53,846 nucleotides of DNA from Psammoneis japonica (Eukaryota), in contig QPGO01000331.1 in the NCBI GenBank assembly GCA_008632985.1, positions 1 through 53,846 on the forward strand. The letters are read 5' to 3'. The notes beneath the pieces are model-generated. The model worked only from the letters and a program-made list of their open reading frames with translations, was not told the origin of the DNA and did no database searches. Below, one piece after another: positions 7,535 to 46,600 of the stretch (positions are counted from its first letter, which is position 1; every line of letters starts with the position of its first letter). The position numbers and the translations under genes were made by a program.

Positions 7535-7724
7535 CAGAACATGCTTTCGGACAGTAACACCTAACACCGAATGAATCCAGATTTGAAAACAAGACCAGCC
7601 CAGGAAGTGAGTCCGTAGGGCCCTACAGTAATCATCATCATCACAGAAGATCCGTGTCAACAACATTGACGTCATCACGAACTCGTGCATACTCTACAGT
7701 CTACAGTCTTCTCTCTAGAGACTA

Positions 7725-10700
7725 CCGCTGGCCTCAAACGTTCCCGGCGTCCGTGACTGAAATTTCACCACGATGAAGTACGTGAGTCGAGTGAGTCGAT
7801 TGGACTCAAACGTTCCCGATTTGGCATAAAAAACGGCATGTTGCACTTTGATGTGTCTCGACATGGCAAACTTCGTTGGGTCGACGTATCTTTCTTGGGG
7901 GATCTTTTTCTATTGTTGTTATAAAGAGGTTGATGCATTGGTTTGGTTTCCGGGGGGGCTTCCGTTGCAACACACGGTGTGAACAGTTGCGTGCCTCGAC
8001 TCGTGACTCGATTGCGTCGCGGTGCGGGCTACATCTGAATGGTCGACAACGTCACAGAGGTAAGTTCTTTCTTTGTTTTCTCATTTTACACCAATTGCAT
8101 GCTCACCAAAGATGTTGTTTGCGCTTTGTTAAAGCTTCGCAGGTGGATTGATCGTCTCGTGCCGTCGATTGTTGCATCTGTGATGTTGGCGTTTTTTTCG
8201 AGGCGTTTGCACCACCACAGCGCATCCGTTTGGGAGCCTTGTGCCTCGTCCCACTCTACATCCTTTGGTGCACCTGTCATGCACATCAACATGGATTTGT
8301 GATGCGCTTGACATCCTTCTTGGGGGCTTGGTCGGCGCACAATCATGGCATGTCGTTTTTCGGCCGTCACAATGTTTGGAAAGTGCATGCCGTGGGAACA
8401 AAATGACGCAATGGAGCCTGGAGGACATTTGTGACAGTGGCATTTGTCAGACAGTCTTGTCACAGTCCACAAAAGGTTCGGAGGCAAAGATCGCACTCTT
8501 CTTGGGAGACTTGCCGTTTGATGGCAGACATGGCGGATTCAAAATCAGGGCAACGCAGAGTTTTCTGGCCAATGACACCGGAGACCACGAATCCCTTCAG
8601 CATCTTCTTCCATTGCGATGACTGAGTCAGGATTGACAGAAGTTTGGTGAGCAAGTTGACGATTGCATCCTTGTCCTTTCCAAGCTGAAGGGGAGTCTTT
8701 TCCAGGGCTCTTGCAGCCTCCAACTTGTTTGCATGAGCATGGGCGTCTAACTCTGTGGTTGTGGCTTGTTTCTTCAGGACAGATTTCGCAGCACTGAAGA
8801 CATCAGCTTGATTGCAAGATGCTTCCGATCCGGTCCTTGCAGGGTTGGTCTTGCTGGAGGTCATCTTCTCTTCATCATCAATTTTTGTCGCTTCTGGGGA
8901 AACCGTGTTTGCATCAATTTGTCCACGGTCACCATCCATGACAAGAATGCTGCGCTCGTCTTCAGTGGGTGCTTGGTCCAAGGCACCCATGCAGCCTCGC
9001 AACTTGTGATGCTGTCTCTGCACACAAGGCAAATGGACAAACTTGCGATGCATCACTGTGTGCTTGAGCTCAGCTTTGTCAACGTCGTCCCTCATGAACA
9101 GGACAAAGCCGACACCAGCATCAACGTTCGCATCACCTCCTGGACACAGCCCGTGCACATCCACTGAATGTGCACCATCCTTGTTGCCATGCGCATCTTT
9201 CGTGTGTCCTTTTGGGAGCTGACGTTTCGTCATCTTCTTGAACGTCAACATGACTGGCACGGCTTCTCCAGAAGCAACCATTGTGACGGCAAGTTTTGCT
9301 CTGAGGCACTCAAATGATGGATCTTTGCCTTTCTCACACTTTGAGTGATTTCCTGCGTCTGCGTTGTCTTTGGCAGCAACAACGCGCCACTCTAAAGGGT
9401 CTCCAGGTTGGGGGCCTTTCATGACAGCAAGCCCAGTGTCGTCCATTCCCATGTTGAGGGATGTGCTCGTCGGATGTGCTTTGTTTCCACGACATGTTTC
9501 AACAAGGTCAAGAAAGGTTTTTGCACCTGCAGTCAGGTTGGAGACCACGTTTTCAAAGGCTTTGTCCTCCCCATCAACAAGCGTTGCATCGGCGCATGGA
9601 ATGACCAAGGTTGTGGTGGCTCGCAAGGAGCGTTCGGCCGTGATGCGATTGTCGGTCTTGCGCTGCATCGTCTTGGTCATTGACAATTCACTGTTCTTCC
9701 CCAGAGCCAACCCGCGATGCCTCTTGGCTTCTCTTGTGGACACAGCCGTGTTTTCCGCCATTGGAACGACACCGCGCTCTGTCATTTTGGTGCATTTGTG
9801 ATCTGCCAAAGCTGTCTTCATTTCATCAAGCCCGAATGACTCACCGTCGTTTTGAACTGACTTCTTGCCAATCACTTGAATCTCATTGTTTGAGGCAACT
9901 GGTGTGTTTCCCCTGGCATGCCACTCTGTGTGCATGGGGTTGCCACTCGAGCAACTTTGAATTGTTTTGTTGCCAGCTCGTTGCACAGTGAAGGGAACCA
10001 GCGAGTGTTCCATTGTGCAAAATCAATGGCTTTGGTGCGATCTTGTTTGGGAATCATCAAAGCCATGTCAGCAAATTCCATCTTGCTGTGCATTTGTGTT
10101 TCCTTGTTTGCAGGCACGCAGAAGTTTGCACGAAGATGATGCGGTGGCTCAAGCAGTTGCGGTCTCTTGTTCACAGCATGTGCCCCTGGTTTTGGTGGCT
10201 GGTTTTCTTTGTCGTTTGCACTTCGGCACACGTCCTCTGGCACGGCGAGGGAATTGGATGGACGTTTCGGACCGGCGGCTCTTGATTCTTGCAATCGGCC
10301 CATGCTCACATTCTCTTGCATTCACTTCTGGCGGGCTTTTTCACTGTTCAAACGATTGTGGACGCACTGAACATTGGGGAGTTGAGCGGCACGAGCTGCT
10401 GTCACGGTTGCTCCTTTTGTCATCGCTTGCGAAATGGAAAGGCTGTTTTCGACAACTTTGAGCTTGCTGACGACTTCTTTCAACTTCTGCTGTGATGCTT
10501 TCTTCCCACTGTTCAATGTGTTCTGGACCTCTTTCAACACATTTTGCTGGTGTTGCATGTCCGAAGCGACAGCAGAACTGTCAAGAAGACCGTCGAATGC
10601 ATTGTCCATTTGGGATTTTTGCATCAACGCAGCGGCATTTTCTTCTGCATCCTTGAGCAATGAAGCAGCAGACAAAGCACACAGATGACTCATGGTTTGT

Positions 10701-10873
10701 CACTGTTCTTTGTGGTGTTCATTGGAGCTGCGACTGCATTTGAAACAACAGCAGCACGGTCATTGCAGCGTTGGCGTTGACCCGTCGCGTCAGAGGGAAT
10801 TCAAATCTTGCGTGCATCATCCTTCGCGTGCGGCGGGAACGTTTGAGGCAACGGGGACGTTTGAGGCCACCGG
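7725..10873 (-). mobile_element. Tc1/mariner-pogo-like DNA transposon, TA-erased relic
   Basis: 22-bp TIRs: CCGCTGGCCTCAAACGTTCCCG (7725-7746) and CGGGGACGTTTGAGGCCACCGG (10852-10873). Subterminal copies at 7801-7818 and 10834-10850. Flanked by TA (7723-7724) and CA (10874-10875). Contains a DDE-like ORF. Confidence 0.85.
8086..10693 (-). pseudogene. Degenerate DDE_1/pogo-like transposase
   Basis: ORF 8460-10013 has LNMGMDDTGL (cf. NMDETG), SILVMDGDRGQ (cf. LLILDGHxSH) and NPARTGSEASCNQADVF (cf. PxxxTxxxQPxDxxxF). Broken into several frames; no Tyr in 517 aa. Confidence 0.7.
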
Positions 10874-11315
10874 CAGTCTTCGGGAATGTTAAAACAGAAA
10901 TGACCCTGACATGCCACTGTCAAAAAACTCTGTTCTGATGTTCCAAAGTGCCAGAAGTGCTTCCCAGCAGAAAAACCTGCCAGAGCTGCGTCCCTCCGGG
11001 TTGGCACTTCCAGAAAATTGGAACAGCCTGTTCCAACATTCCCGGAGTGCCTCATGATGCCATTTGTCTTTTCTGCACATGTTCTGCACAGAGTGCATGC
11101 CAGCGTTTTAAGATCCCATGCGCCACCACAAGACTCCTTCCCGGGACTCGTGAGATTTGTGTCATCAAAGTTTCTGCCGCTCGCACCATTCCTGTCACAA
11201 CAATCAACCCACAATCTGAGTCCGACAAACAGCAACAGTTCATTTCATCGCTGTCTCCTGACAATGTCAACAACACAACATGCCAGGGGGGTGAACTGGA
11301 AGGCACAGTGGATGC

Positions 11316-14180
11316 GTGCACCCCCATCAGCGTGAAACTGATGATGATGCGCCAATCCTTGGGGGCGACTTGTCAGCACCTGGCGACCTCGCCGAAAAGT
11401 GCAATGAAACTGCCCAGTTGGAAATGGGAGACAAATGCCGACAAACCCATTGTCAGAGACTTGCACGTTTGGCCAAGTTTTGGAAGGAGAATGACCCTGA
11501 ATGTCATTCTGTTGGCGTTGGAGAGGTTTCTGCTGAAGACCTTTGCGATCCAACTGAGCACTGCTTCAATCGGCACCGAGAAGACCTTGTGCATGCAGGC
11601 ATGAACGACCAGTTTGCATTGCATTTCTCAGCGTCAAACAAGAAGAAGGCCAGTGGAAAGCTCAAGTTGTGTGAAGACATCCAAAAACACAAAGACGCCA
11701 CAATGTGGGGTGCCAAGACGGCAGACGAGCGCTTGCCTGAGAGCTTCCGTGCAATGTTTGATGAGTTCCTCACCGGGTGCAAGAAGGAACATGCTCAAGC
11801 AAGAAAGAGAGGGAATGCAGATGAAAACTCTGCTGATCCTGTTCCCGTTTCCTTGCACAAGCTCATGCTGGAATGGAGCGTGGAAGCCAACAACGTGTTT
11901 GTGTGGTTCTGGACCATTGCCCAGTGGAATTTCATGGCCAGGTCAACATCCACAGATTCCTCACGGATGAAGAATTTCAAACTGAGCATGGACAGCTTGA
12001 CTGGAAAGCATGCAGAAGCAAAGGCCGACAAGTCTGGAGAGAGGCTTTCAGAGAAAAATGTGTGTGCCAACCCACTGGATTGGACGATGTGCTTTTGGAC
12101 GGGCGCGGGTGTTCATTGTGCTCTTTGTGGCGATGAGTTTGTTGGCAACGATGCTCTCTTTTTGGACAAAGGTGTGAAGGAAGGAATGTGCACCACCAAG
12201 CATTGTGAGCAGATTGCTGGAATTTTGCAGGCCCGCTTGGACAAAATCATGAATCACATGGATCCAAGTCGCGTGAATCCGTGTGGCACTCGAAAGGGCT
12301 CGGGGACCCATGCCTTGAATGGGACCACTTCACCCCCGTCAATTCCAGCTGTTGCACGTCGTGGAGAGTGGACTGTCGGGAGTGTCCTTGATTGCCATTG
12401 ACATTTTGGCAGCATTGGCGACCAACATCTTGGACGCATTCTTGCGGTTTGGATCCAAACGATGCATCATTTGACATGCTTCCACCTCATTGGAAGCTTG
12501 CAGATCCGACATCAAATGAAAAAGTGAAACTTGGCATGATGAAAACATTTGGTGAGAATGTGACAAATGAGCACAAGACTTTTGTTCCCACTCTGCTGCG
12601 GTGCTTTGCATGTGTGGTGCATCGTCCCGACTCGCTGATTGAAGTTGTGGTGAGCGTGCCGGGTCATGACTTTTCGAAGCTGTCAATCCTCCATGAAAGG
12701 AGATTTTTGGGGGAGCTGCAATCTCTTGTGACAACAGAGCCTGCAGAAGGGGCATTGACTGTCCCCACTGGGATGCCACCCCATGTCGGCATGGCAAGAC
12801 AACTGTGCGAGTTGACACGCAAAGCCGATTTGATGCTCGCGAATGTGGATTCGCAGACGGAGACGTTGGTGGCGGCAGTGTTGGATGCAACAGATCAAAA
12901 AGCATGGGATTCTGGACATGTGACAAGTGATCGTCTGAAAGGGATGTTCAAAAGTTTTCAGGAGGAGACAATGCAAATGATGCATTCTGAGTTGGATGGT
13001 TTCAAGACTGTTTTGTGGTCCTTCCCTGCGGGCGGCAGCAACATGTGCACAAACGGCCGCATTGGCGCGGCTTCTGATGATGGTCCAGTGGAAACCACCT
13101 TTTGCTGTGACAACAAAACACACATGGTTCCAAAGCAATTTCGTCTTCCATCGGGAACAACAATCAAGGAAGGCCTGAGATTTTGGCTTTCTGGCCAAAC
13201 CGCATCAGCTGATGGTGCAAAGGTTGGACCTTTTTGAGACCTTGTGCCTTCCTCTCTCCCACCAGAGGCAAGGAAGGTTTGTTCTGTTCAGTGGAGTCCT
13301 GTCTTTCGCTTTGTTGAGAATGCACTGTCAGAGCAAGATGAGTCGCTTGGCGCCGACTCGGATTTTGATGACTTGCACGAAAAGTGTGTCGCGTGCTTGA
13401 AGGAGCATGTGCTTGAAGGAGCATGCCTCGCATTGCTTTGCCAAAGGAGATCCCATGGGGTGGAGCCTTGGAACTTGGAGCAACAGGGTGAGTCATTCAA
13501 TGACACCAAAAAGTGGAGCCGAGTCGGACAAAGGATTTTTGAAAGCTGGTGCGAACCGAAACAAACCTCGGCACGCTGCAACTTGAAAGCATGGTCCTCA
13601 CAATGCGAAACATCCAGGTCGCCAATGCAGACGCCTTGAGAATGAAAGCGTGGCAGAATCAAGAGTGGGAGAAGAGGATGCCTTTGCCAAAGCTTTCAGT
13701 GGTGCAGAGGACAGAATGACAGATCCCATGCGTGAGCGAGACGAAGAAATCAGAGCTGAAGCAGAGCGGGAAATGGCGGCAGAACAAGCTCAGCAACAGA
13801 AAGAGCGTGCCCAAACTGGTGATGGAGTGGGCACTGATGGTGCTCTTCTTTGTGCCCATCAGACGAATGGCGTTGAACGGAATTGTGGCAACGACTCGTT
13901 TTCGGCACGAGTGTCGCATGGCAAAAAAGTTGGTCATGCGATTGACTCCGATTCTGCTGGTGCTGGTGTTGGCATGGGCAAGGCGGGGACCAAACCAACT
14001 CAACCTGGTGTGTGTCCAATTGTTGGATGTACTTGCTTTCGCACCGTTCCTGATCACAAGTGCAAAAACAAGAGCTGCAACAAGTGCGTCCACTGCTTGT
14101 GTGCGCAACGTTGCAGCTTGACGAGTGCAAGCAATGAACTGAGCGTGCATTGTTCAATTGCATGCAAAGGCAGTGATTGG
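11316..14180 (+). pseudogene. Crypton (stramenopile-type) tyrosine-recombinase transposon relic with C-terminal Cys-rich zinc-finger-like region
   Basis: Motifs QWNFMARS, KADKSGE...EKNVCANP, NPCGTRKGSGTHA (cf. HSxRKG), RRGEWTVGSVLDCH*HFGSIGDQHLGRIL, GLDP..ASFDMLPPHW and HMVPKQFRLP...WLSG...GPF, typical of oomycete/diatom Cryptons. Disrupted by TGA stops at 12399 and 13235, a frameshift near 12447 and a 16-bp tandem duplication at 13393-13424. Confidence 0.8.
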
Positions 14181-14464
14181 ACGTTTTGTCATCAGTCAGC
14201 ACAGTGTCATCATTGCATTTTACTTTTGCAAGAGCAACCGAAGAAGTGGTCCAAGAGGTGCAGCGAGCGGCCCACTCTTGCGCAGGTGGTGAAGCCAACG
14301 GTGATGGTGAGGGGAACGACAGTGAAATTGGACACGCCACTCCATCTTATGATCAGCGGCACTGGACAGTTTAGTTAAAAGTGTTCAGCATTGTCAAAAA
14401 TGCTTTGATCGTTCACTCTGTTGTCAATGCGCCTGCCCAACTTGTGCCAGTTCTGAGAGTGTTT

Positions 14465-15175
14465 TTTGGACAAAACAGAAATCCACAATTCTCAACAACA
14501 CACAACGAGACCAACCCAGCAGGATGCATTGTGCAATTGCTCCCAACATTGAAAAAGAAACAGAGAAATCGGTGCAAGCATCATTGAGACATCATGTCGT
14601 AAAGTGGGACACCGGCACGGCGGCACGCATCATTGTGCTGCTGCAGTTTCTTGCGTGTAACTTTGAAACACATGTTCAACGATGTGTGTCGGCAATGCCA
14701 GCAATGAACTTGTTCATTCTGTTGTTGTAATTTTTGGTTTAGACATCTTTAAAAAACATTTGACAATGACATCACAAAAGAATCACAGTCAACGGAAATT
14801 AACGCCAATCGCATCAGACGCTTGTTGCGCGATTTTGCGGCCCGCATGTGGGCCGCAAAAATCTCATCGCAAATTTTTGCGGCCCGCATGTGGGTCGCAA
14901 ATTCTTAAAATGACGCTTGTCTCGGAATGCGCACGCAAAACTTGCATCGCCGACATCCATCGTTGCACACGTGCATTTCTCAGTGGCACGCAACAAACTG
15001 CAGCAGCACAATGGTGCCCACCGCCGGTCTCCCACTTTACGGTGTGATGTCTCAATGATCCTCACACCGATTTCCCCGTTTCTTTCATCAATGTTGGGAG
15101 GGAATGCACAATGCATCTAAATGGGTTGGCCCCATCTTCTGTCATTGAGAATTGTGGATTTCTGTTTTGTTCGAA
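14465..15175. repeat. Long imperfect inverted repeat (arms ~14465-14700 and ~14945-15175)
   Basis: ACAAAACAGAAATCCACAATTCTCAA (~14470) is mirrored at ~15146-15171. TCATTGAGACATCA, GTAAAGTGGGA and CATTGTGCTGCTGCAGTTT are all mirrored in the right arm. Confidence 0.85.
14831..14903. repeat. Two tandem GC-rich palindromes TTTTGCGGCCC-GCATGT-GGGCCGCAAAA
   Basis: Copies at 14831-14863 and 14874-14903, between the arms of the long inverted repeat. A half-site occurs at 16083-16093. Confidence 0.9.
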
Positions 15176-16096
15176 ACCACACAGAATTTTCAAATTTGGA
15201 AAAGCACAAAATGACGGAATGAGCACCAATTTACAAACACTGCACAAACAGTTGTTCTTTTGTGACATGCCAAAACAGACAAAACATGGTTGTGCGGAAT
15301 GTGGTTTCCAATGGCAGTTGCTTGGCTGCTGATCTAGTCTAGTTCCTCAACCGTGATGACAGATTGCCGCGCCAGCTTTTTTGTGGAGTCAACAGAGCGG
15401 CTGTTGCTGACACGCATTCAGCAACAATGAGCTGCGGATCTCGTGCCTCAACTGTGATGCAATGAATTGCAGACATGCCAGCTTTGAAAGGAGCAAACAC
15501 TTTCTTTCAATCTCTGCCAATGCCAACTTGTGTCCTCCTGCAACAGTTCCGTCGCCGCGGCGCCTGACCTCTCCTTTGTCTGCGCCCATCATGTTTTCTT
15601 GATGCTTTCCCAAATTGATCACATGGGCATGGGCAATGACCTTGAATCGTGCTCGAGCTCTCTTGGCCATTGGCAACTCCACAGGAAGACTTGGAGGGGG
15701 GGCATGCACGGGTGCAGATGGTGCTTCGGCAGTGGACTGCGACACCGGATTTCGCGGCATGTCTTGAACAGGCGAAAAAGGCATGTCCGTTCCCGCTGCA
15801 AGCAATGCTGACACATCTGGCACTTCTCTGACGATGTTGTCAGGCGTCCGAGATTGCTGGAGTGAACATCCTTCACTGGTGTGGCCCGCCGCAGGGTCCG
15901 CCATGGTGGAGGGAGAAATCGGCGAAAAAGTGCGCGAAAATGCGCGCACATTTTAGAGGCTACGACAACAACCACTGGGACTTTTTTGACAGATGAAGTG
16001 TCGATTCCTGTGTTTTCGGGCATGGAGAATTCGACTGTGGGGTCAATTCATCGATTGTCTGTGTCATTGAAGATTTGAAAAAATTTGCGGCCCATG

Positions 16097-16414
16097 CTGC
16101 AAATTGCAAAACAATTGCGCGATGCACGTGCCCGAAGGTCGAATGTCGTTGCCCGAAGCAACATTCCTCCTTCGCGCAGATGTCCATTCTACATGGTGTG
16201 TGGTGTTGAAAATCTCGCTGTAGTCGCATGAGTCGTTGAAGTAATTTCATCAATGACCTCTGTTTTGCTGTGCTGCGTGATCTACACAAATCGGACATTC
16301 TCGAATGCTGGTATATTTTCTACGGTCTCTACGTGCGCGAAGCTCGAATTTCGTGCCCGAAGCAACAATCACCCTTCGGGCACGTGTGTCGCGCAATTGT
16401 TCAGCAATTCGCAG
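16097..16414. repeat. ~42-bp inverted repeat, possibly the subterminal structure of an unclassified element
   Basis: 16111-16138 ACAATTGCGCGATGCACGTGCCCGAAGG versus 16373-16400 CCTTCGGGCACGTGTGTCGCGCAATTGT. The direct repeat GCCCGAAGCAACA also occurs at ~16151 and ~16355. Confidence 0.8.
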
Positions 16415-20662: not shown

Positions 20663-20999
20663 TTTGATGGCACAACTGCTGGCAAAACGATGAAGTCCAA
20701 ATCCGGTGGGTTTCAGGTTTTAACAGTGACCCCAGCTATTGTAGTCAGGTTTGAACCCTGTCGATCATATCGTCAATTTTCTGCGAACGGTGGTGCCCCG
20801 GGGCGGCCAGTTCATTGCATCAAGCTAGAGAAGTAACAAAGTGCTCAGTCAGTTATGATGTCGAATGTCGCCCATGGCGTGCCGCACTGTACTGCCGGCG
20901 CGGCGCAATCTTGAAGAGTCTGTCCTCGAGAGCTACCGGGCACCGTACCGGCAGCAGCGAGGAGGAGTGTCGTTGAAGGCATTTCAAAGACTCATTACC

Positions 21000-22701
21000 C
21001 TTTCGAAGACGCGGCGGCGGGTGCCACCGGTGTTGTTGAAACACAGGCTGCTTGAGCCTGTGGTTGAAAGGGCTGACCTTCGCTGCGGAAAAATGTTGGC
21101 TCTGCTTTTGGTCATTCTTGTGAAGAGCCAAGAGAAGCCCAGCGCCAATGTGTTTCTTCATTCTGCAGCAGCAGGAGGCAAGCAGCACAGAGAGGGACAA
21201 ACGAGAGTGACAGCTGTGCCAAAGCGTGCAAGTGGTTCGAAACAAGAAGAAAGCCTCACCTCGGGGAGCCCCCCACCAGTTTTCCTGATGCCCTGCCAGC
21301 CAGCCAGCCAGCCAAGGGCAGCCAGGACAAAGAGCACCTCTCTCACACATGAGCGCTGCTGCTGGTGGGCCGACCTCAAGCGGGAGACGTGTGGCGCTGC
21401 CACTGCACGACCACCCCCTCTGTGCTGCCACAGCGGCTGGCACAGTGCGCTGCCTGCCCTTCTGCCACCTGCCGCTGGTCAAAACATGCAGCAATTTTTC
21501 AAGGCCAAAGCCAAGGATCTGCGTTGGAGAACATGAGACAAGGTCACAATGTGGGATTTTGCTGGCCTGCCCAAGTTTCAAGTTCAAGGTCAGTTTGGGC
21601 ACAGAGCTCACAAGGAGAGCTGGTGCTGGCACCAAGCATGCAGCGCACCTGCCACATGGGAGCGCGGCACTCCACCAGCAGCTCTTGACTTTCCCTGCGC
21701 AGCCCTTGTGCAAACACGCGCCACCCAAAGAGCAAGACTGCATTGCCGAGCAAAAGATCACTCCGCCAGGCTCCACAGGTGCCTCCCCACTTCTCAAAAC
21801 TGTCAGAAGCTTTCCAACACATGCTGCGCCAGATTCCCAAACACAGCCAGGCAGTGGTCAAAACATGCGCTCCAGCATGCCGGACAATCTCAAAACATGC
21901 ATGAAGCCCAGGGCACACATTCTTTCTGCGTGCAAGAGCTTTCCCCAGTGTGAACAGTTGCTGTGATGCTGCTGGTCATGGAACAGGGCAGAGTTGCTGC
22001 GCACACTGCTGCCCACCTCCAGCGCAGTGGGCGCCCCAAGTTTTCATCATCTGACTGCCCCAGCGAACCCAACAAGGCCCCAGTCCTGTGACGTGCTGGC
22101 TCCAGCTTCCAAAAGATGCTGCCGCAGATGTGGTGCTTGCCGCTTTCAGAAATCTGCAAGGAATGCCAAGGCCCAAGACTTTCAACCAACCTTGAGATGG
22201 CTGGCAGCAGCAGCACATGTGTGCACACTCTGCTGCAGACAATTTTGACGTGCAGGAAAACCAAACTCATTTTGACTGTGTTCACAGTTTGGGGACAATG
22301 TGCTGGCAACCAAAAGCTTGCCAGCGAGGTGACACCTCTTGCACACAAAACTCACTCAATGCTGCCTTTTTTGTCTTGCTTGGGCAACTTTCATGTGGAG
22401 GCCACCAAGCTTTGGCACTTGCAGGGCCCTGCCACCTGGGCTGTCCTCTTGCACAGCCAAATTGCTGCGCACTGCGCACCATCATCTGACGTGGCATGGC
22501 TGGCTGCCCTTGGTGACAAGCCTTCGCTGCTCGCACCCAGGAAAACGGTGCGGCCATCTGCAGCGAGGTCAACAGCTCAGAAGGCTTGTCAGCCACACGC
22601 CCTTGGACCCATGCCACCCTGTGCGAAAGAGCCACTGGCTGCCATGCGTTGCGCCTTTTGCAATGGCATGGTGTCCTCTGTGACGCAGCAATGATGGGGA
22701 G

Positions 22702-22757
<56 letters not shown>

Positions 22758-23340
22758 NNNNNNNNNNNNNNNNNNNNNNNNNNNNNNNNNNNNNNNNNNN
22801 NNNNNNNNNNNNNNNNNNNNNNNNNNNNNNNNNNNNNNNNNNNNNNNNNNNNNNNNNNNNNNNNNNNNNNNNNNNNNNNNNNNNNNNNNNNNNNNNNNNN
22901 NNNNNNNNNNNNNNNNNNNNNNNNNNNNNNNNNNNNNNNNNNNNNNNNNNNNNNNNNNNNNNNNNNNNNNNNNNNNNNNNNNNGTGTGTGTGTTCTTGCC
23001 CTCTCTGGAGCAGAAAATGGAGCACCCCCTTTCAAGAAGAGACCCACATCAAGTTTTGCTTGGTGGTCTTGGGCACAAACTTTGCATGGTTGGAGTTCCC
23101 ATCAAAGGTCCTGTGAGCATCATTTTTTTGTGAGAGGGCAAGGGCCTTTTTTTGTTGGGAACACTTCAAGGGGACCAAACAAATGGAGCTTTGTAAAACA
23201 ACCTGCACTCTTGCATTCGCCGTGGTTGTTCTCTCAGTGCAAAAAGGAGTCTCAGAGGGGCTGCACCTGGCCTCTGAGGGAGCTGATGAGGGGCTCGCAT
23301 TTTGAGCTTGTTGCCTCACTCACTTGTTGGTTGCACTGCA
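21000..23340. other. TpA-free island with no recognisable coding relic
   Basis: No TA seen in 21000-22757 and one in 22984-23340 (manual scan). Rich in TG/CA; contains a (CCAG)n tract at ~21296-21313. Confidence 0.85.
22708..22992. repeat. (TG)n microsatellite spanning an assembly gap (N 22758-22983)
   Basis: GT repeats on both sides of the N run. Confidence 0.95.
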
Positions 23341-35882: not shown

Positions 35883-36106
35883 CTCATCGTCCTGCTGTGC
35901 TTTTTTTGTTTTCCGTTTGTTGTTCCGTCGGCGCGGTCGCGTCGCTCTCGCTCGGCGGTGTAGGGCCTACTGTACGGTATGTGTTCTGTGGTTAGACTCT
36001 AGTGTGACGTGTGACGGTGGAGCATATTACTTTTATACGGATTTAAAGATCGAAATATTTTAACGGTGCGAACTCTATCGTTTCAAAAAATGCTGTTTAC
36101 AGCGCA

Positions 36107-36292
36107 GTGCCAGCACATGATGCAACATCATGCCTTCAGCAACGCTGTCATTTTTCGCCCATTGTGGTGCCATGCGATGGTCTGATTGGCAAGGAGGCTC
36201 AAGCCGCCCTACGTCAGCTAGCGGGAAAGATTTCTAACAAGTGGCAGAAAAGCCCTGTTTGGAAGTGTGTGGCTTCTTGTCAACGCAAGTGA
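36107..36292 (+). mobile_element. 3' fragment of a CRE-like non-LTR retrotransposon (C-terminal restriction-like endonuclease region)
   Basis: CLQQRCHFSPIVVPCDGLIGKEAQAALRQLAGKISNKWQK resembles the CxxxxxHFTPFVxSxDGLLGxEAxxxLxxLAxxLxxKW tail of such elements. Confidence 0.6.
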
Positions 36293-37499
36293 GATTCAGC
36301 ATGAGGACTCAACAAACACAGCACTGATGCAGGCCACACTCTTGTGATGCACAAGCATCCAGGACACCAGCCAAATGTGCTGCAGTCAAGCAGCCTCAAA
36401 TGGTCATGTGTGGCACATCATGCCAGTGCCACAGCAGCAAAGTCAAGTGAGCAATGACACACCACAGAATTGAGCTCGTCCTGTGTTGCACCCAAGAATG
36501 ATGGAACATTTTTGTGGTGCATGACTTTTTTTTAAGTGCGGCTTGTTTGAAAAATGACTGGTGGCAAATCCAGGGAAAAGCTCTAAAAGTTGCACTCACA
36601 TGCATTTCAGCAAAAGTCAACCTGGGCTCTAAACCTCCTCATTGTGTGTCCAAAGTTTTTCTGCCACAGAGGAGGGGCCAACAAATGGTTTTGCTCAAAT
36701 GTTGCCATGATTTTTTGGGTGCAGCACAGGATGTGCTGCAAAGAACAAGAGAGGGGACAACCCCCCATCAAAAGCATGAGTTCAGGCATGCAGCAGATGG
36801 GCTGGTCTCTGCTGAAAAACCCAACAGGGAGGTTGTTGGCAGTGATGAGAGATTCTCAAAAGCAACAACAACAACCAGCCCGGTGGCAGCATTGCATGTC
36901 ATCGTGGTCAACAAACCCTTTTGTTGGATTTCAGTTGACTCCATCTCACAATGAGCATCACACCAAGTCTTCTTCATCTGAGGCAGCAGCAGAGACTTTT
37001 TTGTGAGTTGAATGCCCGCCTGTCTTCACGCCAGGAGTTTTTGACACTTGGATGAGTTCAAGTGTCAATTTCCCCCATCAGAAGCCCAGACACGGGCCTC
37101 CACACAATCCAGTGCAAAGTCCATCCATGTTCTTAGTGTGTGCCACACCACATGCATGGCAACATGCTCTCTCATGAGCAGATTGCTGCTTTGTGCTGGA
37201 GCTTTCGTGCACCTTGACACACAGACTTGCAGATCCTTGGTTGAGCAGCTGTGCCTCTGTTCTCTTTGAGATCTTCATGAACATGGAACATTTTGATGAC
37301 AGCAGGAGCATGCATCACATGTCAAATCAACAAAAAAAGACCAGATCCATGTTTTGAGTGCTGTCGCTCCTTTGCCACCAGCTGGGCTGGCGCCAGCTGA
37401 CCCACACTTCCAGCACACCATTGATTGTGGCAGAAGCTCATGGGGATCAGCCAGAATGGACATCACCTCACAGTGACGCCCCACTGAAATAACCAGCAA

Positions 37500-40400
37500 C
37501 AGAGCAAGTGTCACAAAGCATGGAGTTCTTCATTTTCTTGAGGCTTTGCATGGTTTTGCCACAGCAACGCAGTTCATTGTCCATGAGGTGGAGTGGGACA
37601 TGTGATCTTCCACTGAGTTCAGCAGCACATCTCTGTCTTTGGCAAGGTGCTCCTGTTTTTTGTTGCACGTTGCCGTGAGTTTGGCTTCCACTTGTTTGCA
37701 CTGAGATGATTTCCTGGTGTCTGCATCACATGACCATGCACCTCTTTGTCATGCTCTTCCCACAACTCCCACCAGGATTTCCAAGTGCAGGCTCCAATTT
37801 GCACTGCCCAAATGGGAGGTGAGTGATTCTCCTTGTGACACTTTTCCAGCAGTCCTGTGCTGCAAAGATGCATTTCTTGAAAAGTGCTCCAAAGAGTGGA
37901 AAAATGATGGTTGAAAACTTGATGCCAACCCATGTCAGACTGGGCTCTCCACAAAGGACGCAACATTGGGGCAATGTTGTCATTGCATGTCATCTCTCAC
38001 CTTGAAACCATGCTTCAATGGAGGACAAAATAAGATCACACAATGGGGACATTGTGTTGATGTTGTTGCAGAGCTCAAGGAGGCCTTGTGGGAATTTGCA
38101 ATGCCAGGTTTCATTGTCAGGGCAGCACAAAATGCAACCCTGATCTTCCCTGGGATGTTCGCAAGAAAGGTGATGATGTGGTCTCACTGGATTGCAATGG
38201 TGAGTGATCTTGTTTGCAGGAACAAGAAGCTCATGGATCAATTTGACAGCAGACACATGTTGCTTTGAGAACTGGTGCACCAATGCAGTGTGCATGGACC
38301 AGTCTGTTTTGTCTGTGATTGATTCATCCCATTTGTTCCTTTCCTGAATGTGCACCCAAGCAGAGCAGGAGCTGCGCCAGTGTGTCAAACCGCAGATTTG
38401 AGCCCTGTGGCAATGGCCCTGTCTTGAACACTCAGGTGGGATTGGCAATGGGGGAGGGGGATCACCTTGATTGTGTCAGATTTGCACTGACCTTGATGTC
38501 ATCATGTCAGTGTGTTGGCATGCATGTTGATCTGAGCACCAAGAGGGAGAACTCGACTGGAGAGTGTCTGTCCTGATGTCCTTTCACCCACTCAAGAGCA
38601 GGAGCCTGGGCTGGAGAAAAAGGATTGAGGATTTTTCAATGGCTTGGAAGGTCTGACAAATCTTGTTGATGATGTCCCAATCAGATGACAAGATGTTGGC
38701 ACCATGCTTGCACAGTTTAAAATCTGTCTGGGGGGTGGAGACTTGAGCTGAAGGATCAACAGAAGGACTGCTGTCAGACAATCAGGAGAGAACTTGAACA
38801 AGAGCCCTGTTGTCACACCAGTTGTCAACACCTTTGTAAGATGACATTTTGCAAAATTCAAGCAGACAAAAAACAGAGCGTGTCAGGGACATGAACCCAC
38901 AGGCCTCTGCTTGGCACAAAGAAGGCATTCTGTCAAACACCAGTCTGGCACAATCCACCAATGTTCTCCCATCAAATGCAATGGTCCACCCAAATGTTGC
39001 TTTCTGTAGATGCACAGACCCATTGCTGCCTGTCACAAGGCAATTTGATGCAAAGCAATCCACCAGTTTGAGCGGGGAAAAACATGGAATTCCATGTCAG
39101 AGGACAGGGCAGACTCCCAGGAAGGCAATGCTTGCAGACAGTCTTTAAAGAACTTGGGGAGAGGAGGAGGTGTTTCCACTGTCAATTTTGACCAATGAGG
39201 AAGACATTGGCACTGTCCATTGCAGGTGGAGATGATCTCCACTGGGCAAGATGAGTCAGAAGGATCAGGAACCATTTCAATTTGATGCCGGGATGTTGCC
39301 ACTGTGTCCTGGGCCAGAAACACATCAAAACTGGATGGAGACCATGCATGCAAATGTGATTCCTTTGGAGACCAACAGGCAGAGGCCTGCATGTGCATCT
39401 TGGAAGGAGGCACTGACCAATCTCCCAGAGGGGCTCATGGTCTGGTGGAGTCTGGATGACACAACAATTCACACAGGCATGTCCAGGGACCCCATGCTGG
39501 ATGACAAGGTTTTGTTCATTCAATGTTGTCAACAGTGCTGACACTGCTCAGGCAAGTTGGATCACTGCAGACCTTAAACTTGTCCAGAAAGCATCCATCT
39601 GCCATGGCAATGTCCAACACAGTGAGAACCCTGAGACACAGACAGCAATGGTTGATCCACTAAATCTCTCGGGACAAGAATTCTGAAGACTCCAGAGCAA
39701 CATGTCCACCAAGAACTGGTCGTCATCTCATTGCAGAGGTGGCACCCCATCTTCGTGTCAAATCAACAAAGACATGGACACCCACAAAACAGCCTTCTTG
39801 TGCCTCCATTGGGCATTTGCTGCTGGCAGGAAACCAAGATTGAGCAAGCTCCTCAGCACAAGTCAACTCACACTGGAGCTTTTGGCTGGCCACATTTTCA
39901 GCCATCACCAGCTGCTTCTGTCAATGTCACAATGGTTCTTTGGTGCTGCTCACAAGCAATCTGGCACAGTTGTGAGCAGGCACTCATCTCTCAACTGGTG
40001 TTTCTATCAAGGAAGGCTGGGGGCAAGCCCTTGCTGGCCAAATGCCTTGCTTGAGATCCTGTTCTCAACAGCTGCTGCAGCTGAAAATGGGCTGTTTTTG
40101 AGGAAGGATTTTTCAGGTGAGCAAAAGGTTCAAGAAGCATTGCTTGCTCATGATTTTGCAAGACAGCAGAGCCAAAAGATGGTTGGCTCAAGGTGCAAAT
40201 TTGGTGGTGCTGCAGAAATTGTGGCTTCCATTTTTTTGCAAGGGCTGGACAAGGTTGAGAGTGTGCCTTGAGACACCATTTTCTGGTGTGTGCACATTTG
40301 AATTTTTGCAGGGCGTGCTCTCACAACAAGTTTCGAGCTGTGTTTGGAGACATTGGGCTTGAGCACAAAATGACCAAAAGCAACACAGAGGTGCTGCTGG

Positions 40401-41700
40401 GCTGTGTTGTTCAACATGAGTGACCTGGAAAGTTCTTGGTTGGTTGGCCAGGAGGAGTGGGCTGTTGGTGTTTCTTGACCAAGAAATGATCATGACCAAG
40501 GCAAATGGATTTCTGCATCAAAAAAAAGGAGGAAAACAGAGAGGCACCACTTTGAAGATTTGTTGGAAGTCACGTGAGATCACACCTCTTGCACTCACTG
40601 GTGTGCATGGGGGCATGCCAAGTGTGCTGTCTCACAACTGTTGCCACAATTCTGTCTTGGTGTCTTGGCCGCACCTTCTGCATGTTTTTCTGTTCAAGCT
40701 CTGGCACAAATGTTGCCTTTCTCTGACAGTGTGACAATGGTTCTCACCTGCCCATTTTGACTGCTTCTCTCATTGACATGCCTTCATTTCATCATCACAA
40801 GCAATCTCATGCATTGGAAAGTGACTGACATTGAGCTCTTTTGGCTTGTTTGCTTGTCATTCTTCTCCACTCTTCTTGGTGTTTTCTTCCTTGTGTGCCA
40901 AGTTATTTTGCAAATTCTGCGTACTTCAAAAGTCATTTCAGATGGTCAACTTGGCAAACTTTTGGCTGCGTTCCATCCACACCTCTCAGGTGTCAATGAC
41001 CCCCCTTCTGCCTGTTGTCAATTTAAGTTCCCTGCTTCACATGGCAGACAAAAATCTTCCATCATTGCTGCACTCAGAAATTTTGAATGTGAAAGAACCA
41101 GTTCAGCATGCACTGACCTTTCTTCCATGTGCCAACAACTTTGCACAAGTTTTGGTGCATGTTCTGTGTGTCTCAAAATTAATTTCAAACAATTGACTTG
41201 CCAAACTGTTGACTGCTCTTTGTCCACACCTCTCAGGTGTCAATGACTCCCCCTCTGCATGCTATCAGTTTAAGTTTTCTGCCGCCCCCCATGTGGCAAA
41301 TGAGAATCCTCAATCATTGCTGCTCCAAAAAGTCTGAATTTGAGGCTGGCTCAGCATGTGTTGGTGGTTGCTTCATGCCCCACTCTTTCTCATTTTGAAA
41401 CATTTCCTGACTGTCTGTTTCACCTTGGCAGCCAAATCTGATCCCAAGAAGAGAGCCTTGATTGCAGCATCAAGTTTTGACATCTCATTCATTTTGCTGG
41501 TCCTCTTTTTGCTGCTGCCAGCTGTTTCCAGTGGGTGCCACAGATTTGCAGTGTCAATCTTGGCCAGCTGCCATGCACCTCTGCCACATTGTGTTGGTGT
41601 GCAAGGGGTTTGGGTTGGCTTGTTGTGTTGCCAGAGTTGCAGGGTGGAAGCACAGCAGCACTGCAAGAGCAGATGGCTTTGGTGTTGAGTTCAATTTTTG
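37500..41700 (-). mobile_element. Degenerate diatom LINE (Ambal-like) with RNase H and zinc-knuckle C-terminus
   Basis: RNase H relic LVTGSNGSV..ATFGWTIA...PSLCQAEACG...WCDNRALV (38782-39063). Also SSDWDIINKI, HLSCEHPREDQGCILCCP, QSDMGWHQVF and WINHCCLCLRVLTVLDIAMADG (39591-39668). Many stops; boundaries approximate. Confidence 0.75.
40977..41358. repeat. ~135-bp imperfect direct repeat
   Basis: CCACACCTCTCAGGTGTCAATGAC...TTTAAGTT...ATCATTGCTGC...TCAGCATG at ~40977-41110 and ~41224-41358. Confidence 0.8.
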
Positions 41701-44369
41701 CACCATGAGAAAAAGAACTTCACAACACACACCTTTGCCCACACCCACACACACCATTTCACAGTGACTGCAATGATGAGACTGTCATGATGCACCACTG
41801 ATGGTCAAAGACTTCTGCAGAACTTTGACCCACAAAACCCAAGCCTTCCACTGAAGATGCTGCAAGCAAATGCACATGTTGGTCATTGAGAACAAGTTGG
41901 TGCTGAACTTTCAAAATGTTTCAACAAAGAGGGTGCCACAGCTGCAGCTGCATGTGCTTGTGACAGCTCATTGGAAGTTGATCATGGGCAAAGCATGTTG
42001 CTCATTCTGTGGCTTGCTGCTGTCTCCAAAGTCAACAACCAAGAGATGATTGTCTCAGGAGGCAGCACCCACCCTGACACACAAAATCTGGCAAAAACAG
42101 TTGGAAGTTGGAAGCTGCCCATGCCAGCATGATGGGCAAGGAGCTTCCAGCCTGCTTTCTTCTAACTTCTTGGTGTTGAAGCAAAGACATGAAAGTGCTT
42201 GCCCCTCTCAAAAGATGCACAAGCCAATGTGATCTCTGGTCATGATGTGCGACTCCTCAATGGCAAAGAACTCTCCCACTCCAGAGCCCAAAAGGACTCA
42301 GTGGTTGTTTTGCTTTGTTGATTTTTCAGGAGATGCTTGAGTCTGCCTTGCTGTGAGCATCAAGATTTGTGAAAGTGGCGACAGTGTTGAATGTTTGCAA
42401 CATGGATAACGGGCTTGTTGAGCTGCCAGTGCACTGGACATGCAGCATCAGTGCTCACTTTGGAGGTGTGGGTGCAGCTGCCAGCCTGGAAGGCAAAATC
42501 GAAGAATGACAAGGGTCTCACAGAACTCAAGGAGCTTCTGAGCTGAACTGATGAAAAGATCAAGAGCCTTGTGTCTTGCAAAATTTTTAGACTTTTTGGC
42601 AGAAACACTGCTGCACAGTCAAATGATTGTTTTGTGCTGCTGCCTGCTTGTTGAGCCATGGAAGAAACTTGCTTTAGCTGCTCAGTTGGTTCTTTTGCTC
42701 ACATGCTCTGGCATGTTTCAACAGAGCAAAGCACTTGAAAAGTGCAAACGTGGCAGAAGCTAAGCTGCACATCAAATGAGCAACTGCAATGTGAGCACCT
42801 TGACACTCCAGCTGCAGAGTGCAAAATGTCAGCCACCCAGTTGTGGAGCATGTGAAAAATGTGTCAGATGGCTGTCAACTGTGGTGGACAATGATGCTGG
42901 GCAGAACAAGAGCTGAATGATCCCTCACCTTTTGTACTCTGTTTTTTGTTGAGCACCACATTTGCTGCACACAAGACAGCAAGGCTCTGAGTTTGCAATC
43001 TGCTCAAGAAGCAACACCATGAATCCAGTGTGTGATGCACAGCTGCCAAAATGACAGAATTGCTGAGTGTCAAAATTGAAGGACCTTGTTGGACACTTCT
43101 GCACTTCATCAGGGGGGTGACTTTAAAAACTGGGGCCACTTTTTTAATGCACTGTGCTGCTGGTTTGCCAGGAAAGTGCTGGTTTGCCAGGAAAGGAAAC
43201 CATGCAACAAAAAAAATCACATCTTTGCCATGACCCATGGGAAACAAGAAGCAAGAAGATTGAAAGTTGTTGCTGGGTTGCTGTGTTGGCTGGCTGAAAG
43301 ACATTGGCAGCACCATTGCACTGAACATGGTGCTGAGAAAAACAGGCACTGAGGGGGGACAATCAATCTGACCTCTTGATGGGACAAAACCAGAAGTGGC
43401 CCCACATCTCCAGGCATTCCAGGCACAAACCTCTTCAAGTGAGACACAGTGGCAACCACCCATTCTGCCAGCTTTCCAAGATGATGTCTGCCCAACTCCC
43501 ACAGAGGAAGAGACAGAATGGAGCAAATGTGAGCAGGACATTTGACAAAAGAAAAAAATGTCATGGAGCCAGCAAACCAGGGAGAAAGGCAACATTAGAA
43601 GCAACAAGCAAGAGCAGGGTTGATGGCAAGACCATGACAGCAGCTGTGTCTGTTCTGGGTGGCGCCATGACTGCAACAATGAATCTGCCACCACTCTCCA
43701 CTCAAGCTGTGCTCTGGAAGTGACTGTGCACATGATGGAGCACCAGCACACAACCATGTGCTGCTGCTCAGTGAGCAGACACTTGCCTGAGACAAAGGTT
43801 GGGTTTGTGACTAAAACAGAGTGAGTGCATTGTCATCTGTTCAGTGTTGGAGCATCCAGAACAAGCAGGAAATGCAAGAGACCCAGAAGCAGATCCATTG
43901 AAGAGAAGATGCTTTGGATCCTGATGTGGTGGATCAGACGACACTTTGGAAATGAATGTGCACTTGTTGCCAATCTCACCAACTTTCTTTTGTCTCACCG
44001 ACTGGAGTGAATCATCCAGTTTGCACAAATTGTGTGTTGTGGTGTCAGCAGGCAGCACCTCTTGCATGATCACAAGATTGAAGTTCATTGAAAGCTTCCA
44101 GGCAAACCACAGCCATCACAGCAACCAGCACAAGTGTGACAGGCAGCACAGGAAACCTTGGAGAGGACTCTCTTTTGATGACATGGACCCTTGTTGGTTC
44201 AACATTCACTCCAAAGAGTCAAGAGCACTGTGTTCAGTGCATGTGGTGCCAACCTCCATTTTGTCATCTGAGTCAGGAAAACTGCACTGTGAGTGGCAGA
44301 GGAGGAGGTGGAGGAAAGGAGGAGGAGGAGGCCAAGGACACAGCCAAGGCAGGGATGGCAGAGGAAAGA

Positions 44370-46600
44370 AGTCTTGCTGCAACAAAAACAAAAAGACTGG
44401 TGACCCCAACAAGAGTTTCAAACTGGAAATGAAGTTTCATCCATCATTGATGAACAGCAACTCATGCAATTTGATGGTCAAAGACATCAAGGAAAAGATC
44501 ATCAACCATGAGCAGAAGGAATGTGATCAAGATGTGCATCTGGCAAGGTCCCTGGAAGACATGGCATGCATGACGTTCACTGGTGACAGTCCAACGCTGG
44601 TGATGGCAATGCCAGCAGTGCGCCAGCAGAGACAGGCAAAGATTGCCTGACCAAGGCAAACAAGAGGGCCAGAGAAGAAAGGCAACTGGAATGTGAGCAC
44701 AAGATCAAGTTACAAGACTGTGGTGAGAAAGCAAAGAAGCTCAAAGACAACAGAAGCACTGCACTTGTGGTGATCCCAAAGGATCACTGTTCCAAGCTGA
44801 TGGAGCAGAGAGTGCAAGCTGACCCCAGTCATCAGAGGATCAGAGATGACCCAATGAAGCTGCTGAAGCTGATCCAGTCACTTGTGTTCAACTCCATGAG
44901 AGGTTGAGACCCCTCTTCCACACACTTGCCAACAAGTTCCCAAAGCACACACTGGAAGTGAAACAGCTGGAGGATGAGTCACTGAATGTCTTCCTGTCAA
45001 GATTTAAGAATCAACGGGGTGCCACAACAAGTGATGGTCTTGACAGCAAAATGTTGGACAGATTTTTTTGTCAAGAATGCCAAGGAGTGCAAGGACTGTG
45101 CTGCCACAGCAGATGAGCAAATGCTGAAGGATGCTGCTTTCAAGACATTGACAACACACCTGTTTGTGGATTGTTGCCACAAGAGCCTCAAAAAGAGCCT
45201 TGTGAGAGACTGCAGCCCAGGCAAGGATTCACATCCAAATGCCCTCAAGAAGGCAATGGATGTGTTGCTGAACTGTCCAAAGGATGCATGATGATCTGCG
45301 CAAGGGGTGAAGCAAGAAGAACAACAATGAATGCCCAAAAAACAAGAAAGAAGACAAGGGCACAATTGCATGCTGCCCAACAGCCTGCAAGACCAGAGTG
45401 ATGCACACAGAGTGGCAAAACAGCATGCCATTGTTGTGGTGAGCCAAACCACAAGTCTCCAGACTGCAGGTGCAAGGATGAGATTCCACAGAAGGGCTGG
45501 TGTGAGAACACCTGTGAGAGATTGGTTGCCAGGGACAGAGTCGTGCACAGAGAGACAATGACAATTCATCAGTGAGCAGTGATGAGGACACCAGCGTTGA
45601 CACCCACAGGTCAAGTTGATCTGCAAGCTCCAACAGAAGAAACATCACATTGCATGGGTTCCAGTTGGATGAACAGGCGCTGAAGAAGGGCCAGACATGA
45701 GTTTGAGCCAAGCTGATGTCAGCATTGAGTCAGATGAGATCATCCTTGACAACAGCTTTGCTCTCTTGGTGTGGCAGCAAGTCAGAAACTGGTGCACAAT
45801 GTGCAACCAGCAAGGATCAAGATTGTCCTTTCTGCCAACACAGGAGTGGATGCTTTGGACAAAGTCCACCCTGTGCCAGGATGGGGTGAGGTGAAGCTCA
45901 GATCACAGAATGCAGCAGCTGACATCCTGAGTCTCAAGGATGTGAAGAGCAAGTGCTGCATTGCACATGACAAGAGAGTGGCAGACAAGCTCCATCTGCT
46001 GGATGAGAAGACTGGCAAACAGGTCACAGTGTTCAAAGTTAATGACATCCAGCTGCACACCTTTGCACCAAGCCAGCAATTCTTTGACAACACAAAAGAG
46101 CTTCAAGAAGGTGAGTCAAATGTGAGCATGCTGTCAAAGGACAAGAAGGTTGCAAAGAAGACAAGCAAAAAGCACAAGAGTGTGTCAGGAGCTCTTGTTC
46201 TGACTGTGAAACAGAGTGTGAAAGGCCACACTAAACAAGAGGCAGCAAATGCTTCTGAGGAAGCATTGAGACTGTGCCATGAGGCTGGAATGCCCAGTGC
46301 GAAAAATTTCAAGCTGTTTTTATGTTCAAACCAGAGGTGAAGAACCTGCCCATTCTCCCTGAAGATGTGGACAGAAAGGCAGCCATGTGGGGTCCACTGA
46401 CAGACACACTGAAAGGCAAGACCAAGCATGCACACCATTCCCATGAGAGGAGTGACATCATTGCCATTCCACCTGAGATCCGCAAGAAGCAGAGAGAAGG
46501 TGTGACCCTCTGCGTTGACTTTGTCGAAGTGTGCAGTGCCAACACACTGCACGCAATTGACGAGAAAATTGACTTGCTTGTCAGTTCAACATCCAGTGTG
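44370..46600 (+). mobile_element. Truncated Ty1/copia (CoDi-type) gag-protease-partial integrase relic
   Basis: Gag: EMKFHP...IKEKIINHEQK, RIRDDPMKLLKLIQ, KQLEDESLNVFLSRFK. Knuckle CHCCGEPNHKSPDC (~45426-45467). Protease IILDNS and VPGWGEV. Pre-integrase/integrase LCHEAGMPS, WGPLTDTLKGKT, VTLCVDF. No LTR identified. Confidence 0.8.

Follow-up and report, generated by a model that had tools for sequence, protein, structure and literature searches.

A Crypton-like tyrosine recombinase copy in the diatom Psammoneis japonica was probably inactivated by TA-directed A:T-to-G:C hypermutation

How could a gene lose all of its tyrosine codons? This question is raised by a tyrosine recombinase pseudogene of a Crypton-like transposable element in the diatom Psammoneis japonica, located on contig QPGO01000331.1 (assembly GCA_008632985.1), of which positions 1 to 53,846 were analysed here (the window, 53,846 nucleotides at its full length). 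Not a single Tyr codon is left in the pseudogene, and the dinucleotide TA is missing from the gene and, almost entirely, from the block of DNA in which it lies. We consider it highly probable that TA-directed A:T-to-G:C hypermutation killed this Crypton-like copy, which is the explanation that best accounts for all of the observations jointly.

The pseudogene was compared with 14 related proteins (40-52% identity), which were obtained by a word-based search among 2459 candidates and then aligned. Columns with Tyr in at least 60% of the relatives were taken as conserved Tyr columns. None of the 17 such columns kept Tyr in the window; it was replaced by His in 10 columns, by Cys in five, by Arg (CGT) in one and by Phe in one. 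In a leave-one-out control, each relative lost just 0-4 of its own 6-16 conserved Tyr columns. A preliminary description of this locus had stated that every Tyr was converted to His or Cys and had quoted four strings, all of which were found again in the plus-strand frame: EKNVCANP (TGT at 12063), NPCGTRKG (TGT at 12282), VLDCH* (CAT at 12396) and GDQHLGRIL (CAT at 12426). The relatives have Tyr at all four quoted columns, hence Cys or His is not the native residue there. The statement itself is accurate for 15 of the 17 conserved columns and for the complete absence of Tyr codons, but not for the two columns with Arg and Phe; the predicted occupancy (nearly all Cys or His, occasionally Arg) agrees with these counts. 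Tyr turned to Cys or His throughout because TAT and TAC are its sole codons and TA had changed to TG or CA.

Other residues follow the same rule. None of the 13 conserved Ile columns retained Ile, which had given way to Val, Thr, Leu or Met, and other conserved residues were mostly retained, for example at 21 of 24 Gly columns and 30 of 39 Leu columns. Relative to 13 intact relatives, Tyr fell from 5.0% to 0 and Ile from 5.1% to 2.35%, while Cys rose from 1.7% to 4.4% and His from 2.6% to 5.2%, the combined gain of Cys and His being close to the drop in Tyr. The codon shifts that had been predicted along with this drop in Ile were also seen, as ATA, TTA, CTA and GTA were all absent. There are 10-22 TA per 100 codons in the 13 intact relatives (9.0 within codons and 5.4 at codon junctions) and 0 in 383 codons of the window.

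To describe the mutation spectrum, we used 316 conserved columns, at which the window differed from its relatives by 97 mismatches. These comprised 32 single TA>TG or TA>CA steps, 6 CG>TG or CG>CA steps, 14 other transitions, 24 transversions and 21 multi-step changes. The polarity and the dinucleotide specificity of the changes are both clear: 14 of 19 A>G changes were preceded by T, and 18 of 20 T>C changes stood before A. Of the single-step TA changes, 14 were A>G following a T and 18 were T>C preceding an A, and therefore both strands were hit about equally, in agreement with what had been proposed at first sight of this gene. Two candidate patterns were tried and dropped, namely strand tracts (the 32 ordered changes form 20 runs, against 16.75 expected) and a TG/CA skew linked to transcription or replication (within +/-0.14 per kb, without pattern).

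The loss of TA is a property of the DNA block and not of the gene, and it is confined to mobile or foreign DNA. Three TA-poor blocks were identified in the window (Table 1). Block A, which holds the pseudogene, is 7.7 kb long, and its edges as given by TA positions are 8130/8257 and 15954/15961; those of block C lie at 36098-36235 and 47514. The longest run without any TA, which would contain many at host density (Table 1), rules out chance and bears out the earlier remark that TA loss had reached saturation. From host DNA of the window to the blocks, TA falls from 41.1 to 0.6-3.1 per kb, TG+CA rises from 140 to 198-229 per kb and, in block C, CG falls from 58 to 5.6 per kb. TA, CG, TG and CA add up to 239.2 per kb in host DNA and to 241.4, 255.3 and 237.7 per kb in the core of block A, in block B and in block C, respectively; such a conserved sum matches pure transitions at both palindromic pyrimidine-purine steps. 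The observed/expected (o/e) ratio of TA is 0-0.1 in the blocks and 0.4-0.9 in the intervening host genes, which have Pfam domains of GRAM/VASt, lysine methyltransferase, dUTPase, Ric8, RPC82 and choline transporter. In blocks A and B, TA is gone and CG is still present at 32-44 per kb; therefore, TA loss and CpG loss are separable. Block C may represent an element that is older or carries more methylation. Between the arms of an inverted repeat in block A, we observed CA<->TG doublets, as would be expected if a single TA of the ancestor had changed to TG in one copy and to CA in the other. The sub-zone 14030-15340, which contains this repeat, keeps 17 TAs and may be a later or less-targeted nested insertion.

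Table 1. Features of the pseudogene and of the TA-poor blocks in the window
Feature	Position	Strand	Remark
TA-poor block A	8257..15954		Holds the recombinase pseudogene; 2.9 TA per kb, TG+CA 200 per kb
Longest TA-less run	11109..14030		2921 bp between two surviving TAs; ~120 TA expected from host density, none present
Crypton-like tyrosine recombinase pseudogene	11298..14168	+	tblastn, colinear with residues 4-993 of Seminavis robusta P0155
Recombinase part	11301..12553	+	Matches residues 4-422 of relative P0003
CAT (His) at putative nucleophile Tyr	12396..12398	+	LDVYW column, P0003 Tyr370
In-frame TGA	12399..12401	+	At the relatives' Trp column; G>A change, unrelated to TA
Frameshift	12443..12449	+	Homology resumes in the next frame
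Second in-frame TGA	13235..13237	+	
Second frameshift	13411..13413	+	
Third in-frame TGA	13584..13586	+	
Cys/His-rich C-terminal motif	14013..14168	+	Common to P0155
Inverted repeat	arms 14464-14701 and 14941-15176		80% identity; 40 mismatches, 25 of them transitions; 3 adjacent CA<->TG doublets
TA-free block B	20996..23194		N gap 22758-22983
Block C	36235..47514		11 kb; TA 3.1 per kb, CG 5.6 per kb, TG+CA 229 per kb

The recombinase gene is a pseudogene and belongs to a dead transposon copy. Its coding region is split over three frame segments of the plus strand, which are together colinear over 990 residues with a 1007-aa 'unknown protein' (P0155) of the diatom Seminavis robusta. The frame had been described as otherwise largely intact, which does not hold, as three in-frame TGA codons and two frameshifts were found in the gene. 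The element had further been called fairly young; a non-Tyr mismatch rate of 0.24, compared with 0.10-0.36 in the relatives, speaks for this only indirectly, and the gene carries five disruptions. No second copy of the element was found in the window by self-comparison.

Intermediate stages of the process were found outside this genome. Scanning metagenome contigs with two peptide patterns yielded 79 loci of the family, with TA o/e of 0.31-0.92, none of them as TA-poor as the window. Eleven loci keep every covered conserved Tyr, and three (L003, L002 and L004) lose 2-3 of 14. Much stronger losses were observed in L043 (7 of 14), L048 (6 of 9), L051 (8 of 10), L068 (10 of 10) and L055 (14 of 14), mostly to Cys or His. 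Several of the graded loci are 91-98% identical in DNA, and DNA alignment revealed TA sites lost at 9 of 32 in L048, 16 of 35 in L051, 8 of 23 in L064, 13 of 42 in L043 and 36 of 39 in L055. The losses thus amount to 28-92% of TA sites, nearly all of which had become TG or CA, and other positions changed by 2.4-10.8%. The graded series in copies of 94-98% identity thus demonstrates that change is much faster at TA sites than elsewhere, and with such relatives in metagenomes the process is not peculiar to the genome of the window. In L055 and L068, an abrupt switch from 14-25 TA to 0-3 TA per 250 bp occurs a few hundred bases upstream of the open reading frame (ORF). These two are separate contig records of the same fully TA-depleted copy (L055 1-2950 and L068 1-2734), with the same state at 33 of 33 common TA sites.

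The base following the mutated adenine has a strong effect. In four partly mutated copies, the adenine was mutated in 16 of 49 cases with C at position +1 and in 17 of 62 with T, compared with 7 of 88 with A and 1 of 50 with G; no clear base effect was detected at positions -3, -2, +2 and +3 of the same copies. The TAs that survive in the blocks of the window show the other side of this preference. YTAR (Y, pyrimidine; R, purine), in which the adenines of both strands are followed by a purine, makes up 37 of 61 surviving TAs in the blocks and 261 of 1344 TAs in host DNA (odds ratio 6.4, P 8e-12). Relative TA density, blocks over host, is 0.22 for YTAR, 0.047 where one strand is exposed and 0.012 for RTAY. 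The target is 5'-TAY-3'.

Copies of the element were also present in X1, one coded public run holding 0.47 of the sampled words, of which two other runs (X2 and X3) held next to none. Over positions 7500-16500, 1116 short X1 contigs matched at a likeness of at least 85% and 244 of them at least 99%, including one of 230 bases without any difference. The differences fell on 190-227 places per transition type and 10-30 per transversion type, and 19 of 25 listed transitions inside block A were at TG/CA steps of the window, compared with a 40% baseline. Given this spread of contigs, the element is a diverged multi-copy family, and the exact TA-free text exists in contigs built from k-mers. At 12282, where the window has TGT, X1 copies read C, and the conserved Tyr codon at 11748-11750 of the window is now CGT (Arg). 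It thus seems that a TA step may be altered at both of its base pairs (TA>CG), which would give rise to a new CpG.

In the mechanism proposed here, a multi-copy Crypton-like element in a diatom would have been inactivated by a process acting on the whole insert and not on the protein. The adenine of 5'-TA-3' would be turned into guanine on either strand, best with a pyrimidine next to it (5'-TAY-3'), so that TA would appear as TG on the strand that was hit and as CA when the opposite strand was hit. Such a process would have sharp edges, run to saturation and be many times faster than ordinary decay. With regard to the chemistry, a TadA/ADAT2-like enzyme targeted to silenced DNA may deaminate adenine to inosine, which is read as G, and genome defence would be the role of the process.

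That a TadA/ADAT-like DNA adenine deaminase may be responsible is suggested by analogy. As reported for bacteria, TadA edits mRNA at UACG and recodes Tyr to Cys (PMC11472039). The 5' U or T before A, the C at +1 and the Tyr-to-Cys outcome are common to TadA/ADAT2 and to our element; on the other hand, the enzyme as described there acts on RNA stem-loops and requires G at +2 (PMC11472039), whereas here DNA is changed, T at +1 equals C and +2 is indifferent.

The closest known case is the chlorarachniophyte Bigelowiella natans. In the preprint text, Mettrop et al. (bioRxiv 10.64898/2026.01.13.699255) describe mutation-accumulation lines in which A>G or T>C made up 230 of the 231 mutations newly arisen within two inserts of viral origin; the GC-biased new mutations were all at TpA, and the rate was ~1000-fold above background. 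They counted 124 clusters depleted of TA in the genome and put forward an ADAT2-like deaminase. Both systems have A>G/T>C changes at TpA giving TpG/CpA in foreign DNA with regional boundaries, and the TA-depleted, CA+TG-enriched clusters of B. natans are described as holding transposon-type domains, a transposon being affected here as well. They differ in host and target, which are a chlorarachniophyte with viral/virophage inserts there and a diatom (stramenopile) with a DNA transposon family here, and also in degree, with a Rho of 0.45 given for the insert of nucleocytoplasmic large DNA virus origin in B. natans and a saturated TA o/e of 0-0.02 here. Compared with that text, the +1 pyrimidine preference, the YTAR survivors, the environmental graded series and a block that also lacks CpG are additional. 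The text, whose supplementary tables may hold context data, makes no mention of diatoms or tyrosine, and our literature searches found no report of a TpA hypermutation signature in diatoms. Thus, our finding is a saturated instance of a recently described hypermutation in a new lineage, on a transposon, with a sharper motif and natural intermediates.

Two other well-known processes leave comparable traces. Repeat-induced point mutation (RIP) of ascomycete fungi is likewise a transition hypermutation of repeated or mobile DNA, with a dinucleotide signature and dead transposase genes; however, as generally described it changes C to T mainly at CpA, creates TpA and lowers GC, whereas the window shows the opposite direction, TpA being destroyed and CpA/TpG made. 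Decay of CpG through 5-methylcytosine also converts a palindromic pyrimidine-purine step to TG/CA in silenced elements, and CpG loss is partial in block A and near-total in block C. It cannot remove TA, and blocks A and B are TA-free with CG kept.

Among the alternatives to adenine deamination, the one that survives best, though we regard it as unlikely, is that the same targeting works through other chemistry: either thymine is oxidised (to 5-hydroxymethyl- or 5-formyluracil, which can pair with G), or a symmetric mark on the TA palindrome, such as N6-methyladenine, is deaminated, in parallel with the decay of 5-methylcytosine at CG. Since TA is palindromic, T>C and A>G on the opposite strand are indistinguishable by sequence. 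Block C, which lost both palindromic steps (TA and CG) to TG/CA, would fit such a chemistry, and so would the Tyr codon that is now CGT and the C of X1 at 12282, where both pairs of one TA step appear changeable. Against it, known eukaryotic N6-methyladenine is described at ApT in active genes, without depletion of its dinucleotide, and the strong effect of the 3' base (Y much more than R) is simplest for an enzyme reading the A-bearing strand.

Somewhat less probable still is that no dedicated system exists and that a spontaneous bias in TA context becomes visible only in silenced, poorly repaired or late-replicating DNA. All three blocks are indeed non-genic or dead DNA, and the changes are scattered without strand tracts, with TG and CA near balance. 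However, TA has disappeared entirely over kilobases, compared with changes of just 2.4-2.7% at the other sites of the partly mutated relatives, and the edges are sharp to ~100 bp. We know of no spontaneous lesion with TAY>TGY specificity, no search for one having been made beyond the literature searches on hypermutation. In B. natans, the ~1000-fold rate is reported for only some lines and is read by its authors as regulated.

Methylated motifs give systematic consensus errors in some long-read assemblies, and a TA modification in repeats that was miscalled as G or C would accordingly be a sequencing or assembly artefact. X1 may be the source sample, which leaves some room for this view. It is nevertheless very improbable, considering the X1 contigs that match at 99% or above, one of them without difference, the presence of the same signature in metagenome contigs of other projects (including the two records that agree at all common TA sites) and the G>A stops and frameshifts in the gene that are unrelated to TA.

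Avoidance of certain words under restriction pressure is well known in phages, and the element might natively avoid TA or come from a TA-poor donor, for example in order to escape a TA-cutting nuclease. We give this hardly any credence: conserved residues including the putative nucleophile were destroyed, stops and frameshifts are present, the same ancestral TA became TG in some copies and CA in others along a graded series at 94-98% identity, and intact relatives are rich in TA. ADAR favours a 3' G, and a transcript that was edited by an ADAR-like enzyme, reverse-transcribed and put back into the genome would leave one-strand A>G changes with G favoured 3' of them, a pattern that was not found, G after A being the least mutated context (1 of 50). 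Although ADAR prefers U 5' of the edited A (as stated in the preprint of Mettrop et al.), this route is equally implausible, given that both strands were used about equally, that non-coding flanks and neighbouring elements are just as TA-free, and that the element encodes a tyrosine recombinase, with no reverse-transcriptase domain found by Pfam in the recombinase ORFs and the other block ORFs searched.

Several points weigh against TA-directed hypermutation by an adenine deaminase as formulated above. The polarity in the window was deduced from relatives that share 40-52% identity with the pseudogene, and an intact copy belonging to this genome was not encountered. The +1 preference comes from 41 mutated sites in four related copies, one of the two scan patterns contains Tyr, which leaves mutated copies under-sampled, and TAY is linked to TadA-like enzymes through analogy, with no preference at +2, where TadA requires G. 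The window may itself have been assembled from the X1 sample, which is therefore weak as independent support. Finally, the flanks (7801-8402 and 15928-16500) have the deepest summed X1 contig depth (2000-4000) and a normal TA content, compared with 115-410 through most of block A and up to ~1100 at 14423-15927; if these flanks are high-copy repeats, repetition alone does not trigger the process, and some repeats escape it.

The assignment of the gene to tyrosine recombinases comes mainly from structure prediction. A model of the relative P0003 was built from 38 sequences, with a mean predicted local distance difference test score (pLDDT) of 76.6; an earlier model from 14 sequences (54.6) was too poor. 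The model matched only tyrosine recombinases and their derivatives, with XerA and Cre at the top of the Foldseek results (probability 0.99-1.00), and aligned to Cre over model residues 35-407. The predicted structure has the two-domain fold of tyrosine recombinases, with a helical core-binding domain and a catalytic domain. Catalysis in this superfamily relies on R...K...HxxR...H/W...Y, the Tyr being the nucleophile. The relatives carry a conserved R (WNxMAR) and the motifs YGxRKG, RGEW and LDVYW. In a weak hhalign match (probability 1%, E 0.054), a family Trp falls on Cre Trp315 and the Tyr of LDVYW follows nine residues on, like Cre Tyr324; in two stretches of the model (residues 352-361 and 371-378) the pLDDT drops under 50. 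The LDVYW Tyr is thus the candidate catalytic nucleophile. The proposed conversion of the catalytic Tyr stands as far as His at 12396 is concerned, and the role of that residue is putative, in view of the low hhalign probability. As the putative nucleophile Tyr is His, the window copy itself would not be active. Judging from the alignment, this family seems to have a conserved Tyr (NPYGxRKG; window 12282) at the box-II position, where most tyrosine recombinases have His.

Profile methods were less informative. No Pfam family was matched at E up to 1, including Phage_integrase (PF00589) and DUF3504, by the recombinase ORFs of the window or by the intact proteins P0155, P0002, P0010 and P0004. 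Among PDB sequences, a profile search retrieved only a cystatin-like row at chance level (E 0.18) and no recombinase, and hhalign of the relatives' alignment against lambda Int gave nothing meaningful. Eukaryotic Cryptons are described as very divergent in sequence (Kojima and Jurka 2011, PMC3212892), because of which the missing Pfam match lowers the recombinase assignment little. As characterized in the same paper, CryptonS elements share with ours a stramenopile host, multiple copies and a single protein of ~1000 aa with a recombinase part and a conserved C-terminal region, and lack a GCR1_C domain, which was not detected by Pfam in this gene either. CryptonS of oomycetes and Phaeodactylum have terminal direct repeats of 5-6 bp, commonly with TATGG termini (PMC3212892); the ends of our element were not located, and the ORFs flanking block A have nothing in common with the sequences that flank the metagenome relatives, leaving the element ends undefined. 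The name Crypton, used from the beginning for this gene, is therefore supported by fold, host range and gene plan, its place beside CryptonS being by description only.

In the remaining parts of the blocks, long ORFs (up to 520 aa) are present in all six frames because TAA and TAG are gone and TGA is the sole stop; 76 ORFs of at least 40 aa overlap positions 10500-15000. The 520-aa ORF (8463-10022, minus strand) had no homologue among 8000 scored candidates and is probably a stop-free artefact of TA loss. The longest ORF of block C (42867-43832, minus strand) had 0 matches in 1.84 billion representatives, and a Pfam search with 64+111 other ORFs of blocks A-C gave none at E 0.01 and chance-level rows at E 0.05. 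As for the host DNA, the best matches of a FemAB-like ORF are at 65% identity, the named ones belonging to the diatoms Attheya, Cylindrotheca, Nitzschia and Fragilaria (48-60%), and most of the Atlas clusters closest to the Ric8 ORF belong to Bacillariophyta; the window therefore does not come from Bigelowiella. In addition, 33662-34604 and 48565-49501 are 70% identical, on the same strand, and correspond to paralogous host genes with Gly_transf_sug, a glycosyltransferase DXD-motif domain.

The present locus has consequences for annotation and for the study of genome defence in algae. TA-free blocks lack TAA and TAG stops, and gene finders would call long false ORFs in them, whereas homology tools miss such dead elements, as 0 of 175 block ORFs outside the recombinase gene matched Pfam at the cut-offs used. 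TA-aimed A:T-to-G:C hypermutation had been reported once, in the 2026 chlorarachniophyte preprint, and is now seen in a second, ecologically dominant algal lineage. The responsible enzyme could be traced through genomes with and without the signature, through the target (TAY hit, YTAR spared) and through natural intermediates that show the order of events. It is conceivable, though we put it forward tentatively and at somewhat less than even chance, that diatoms, and perhaps much of the SAR group (stramenopiles, alveolates and Rhizaria), possess a dedicated DNA adenine-deaminase defence, an 'inverse RIP' that would turn A into inosine at 5'-TAY-3' in both strands of silenced mobile or viral DNA until TA is exhausted, beside CpG methylation and with an enzyme derived from TadA/ADAT2. 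If true, this would be the first natural DNA adenine editor used for defence, and a DNA adenine deaminase of natural origin would be of interest for base editing.

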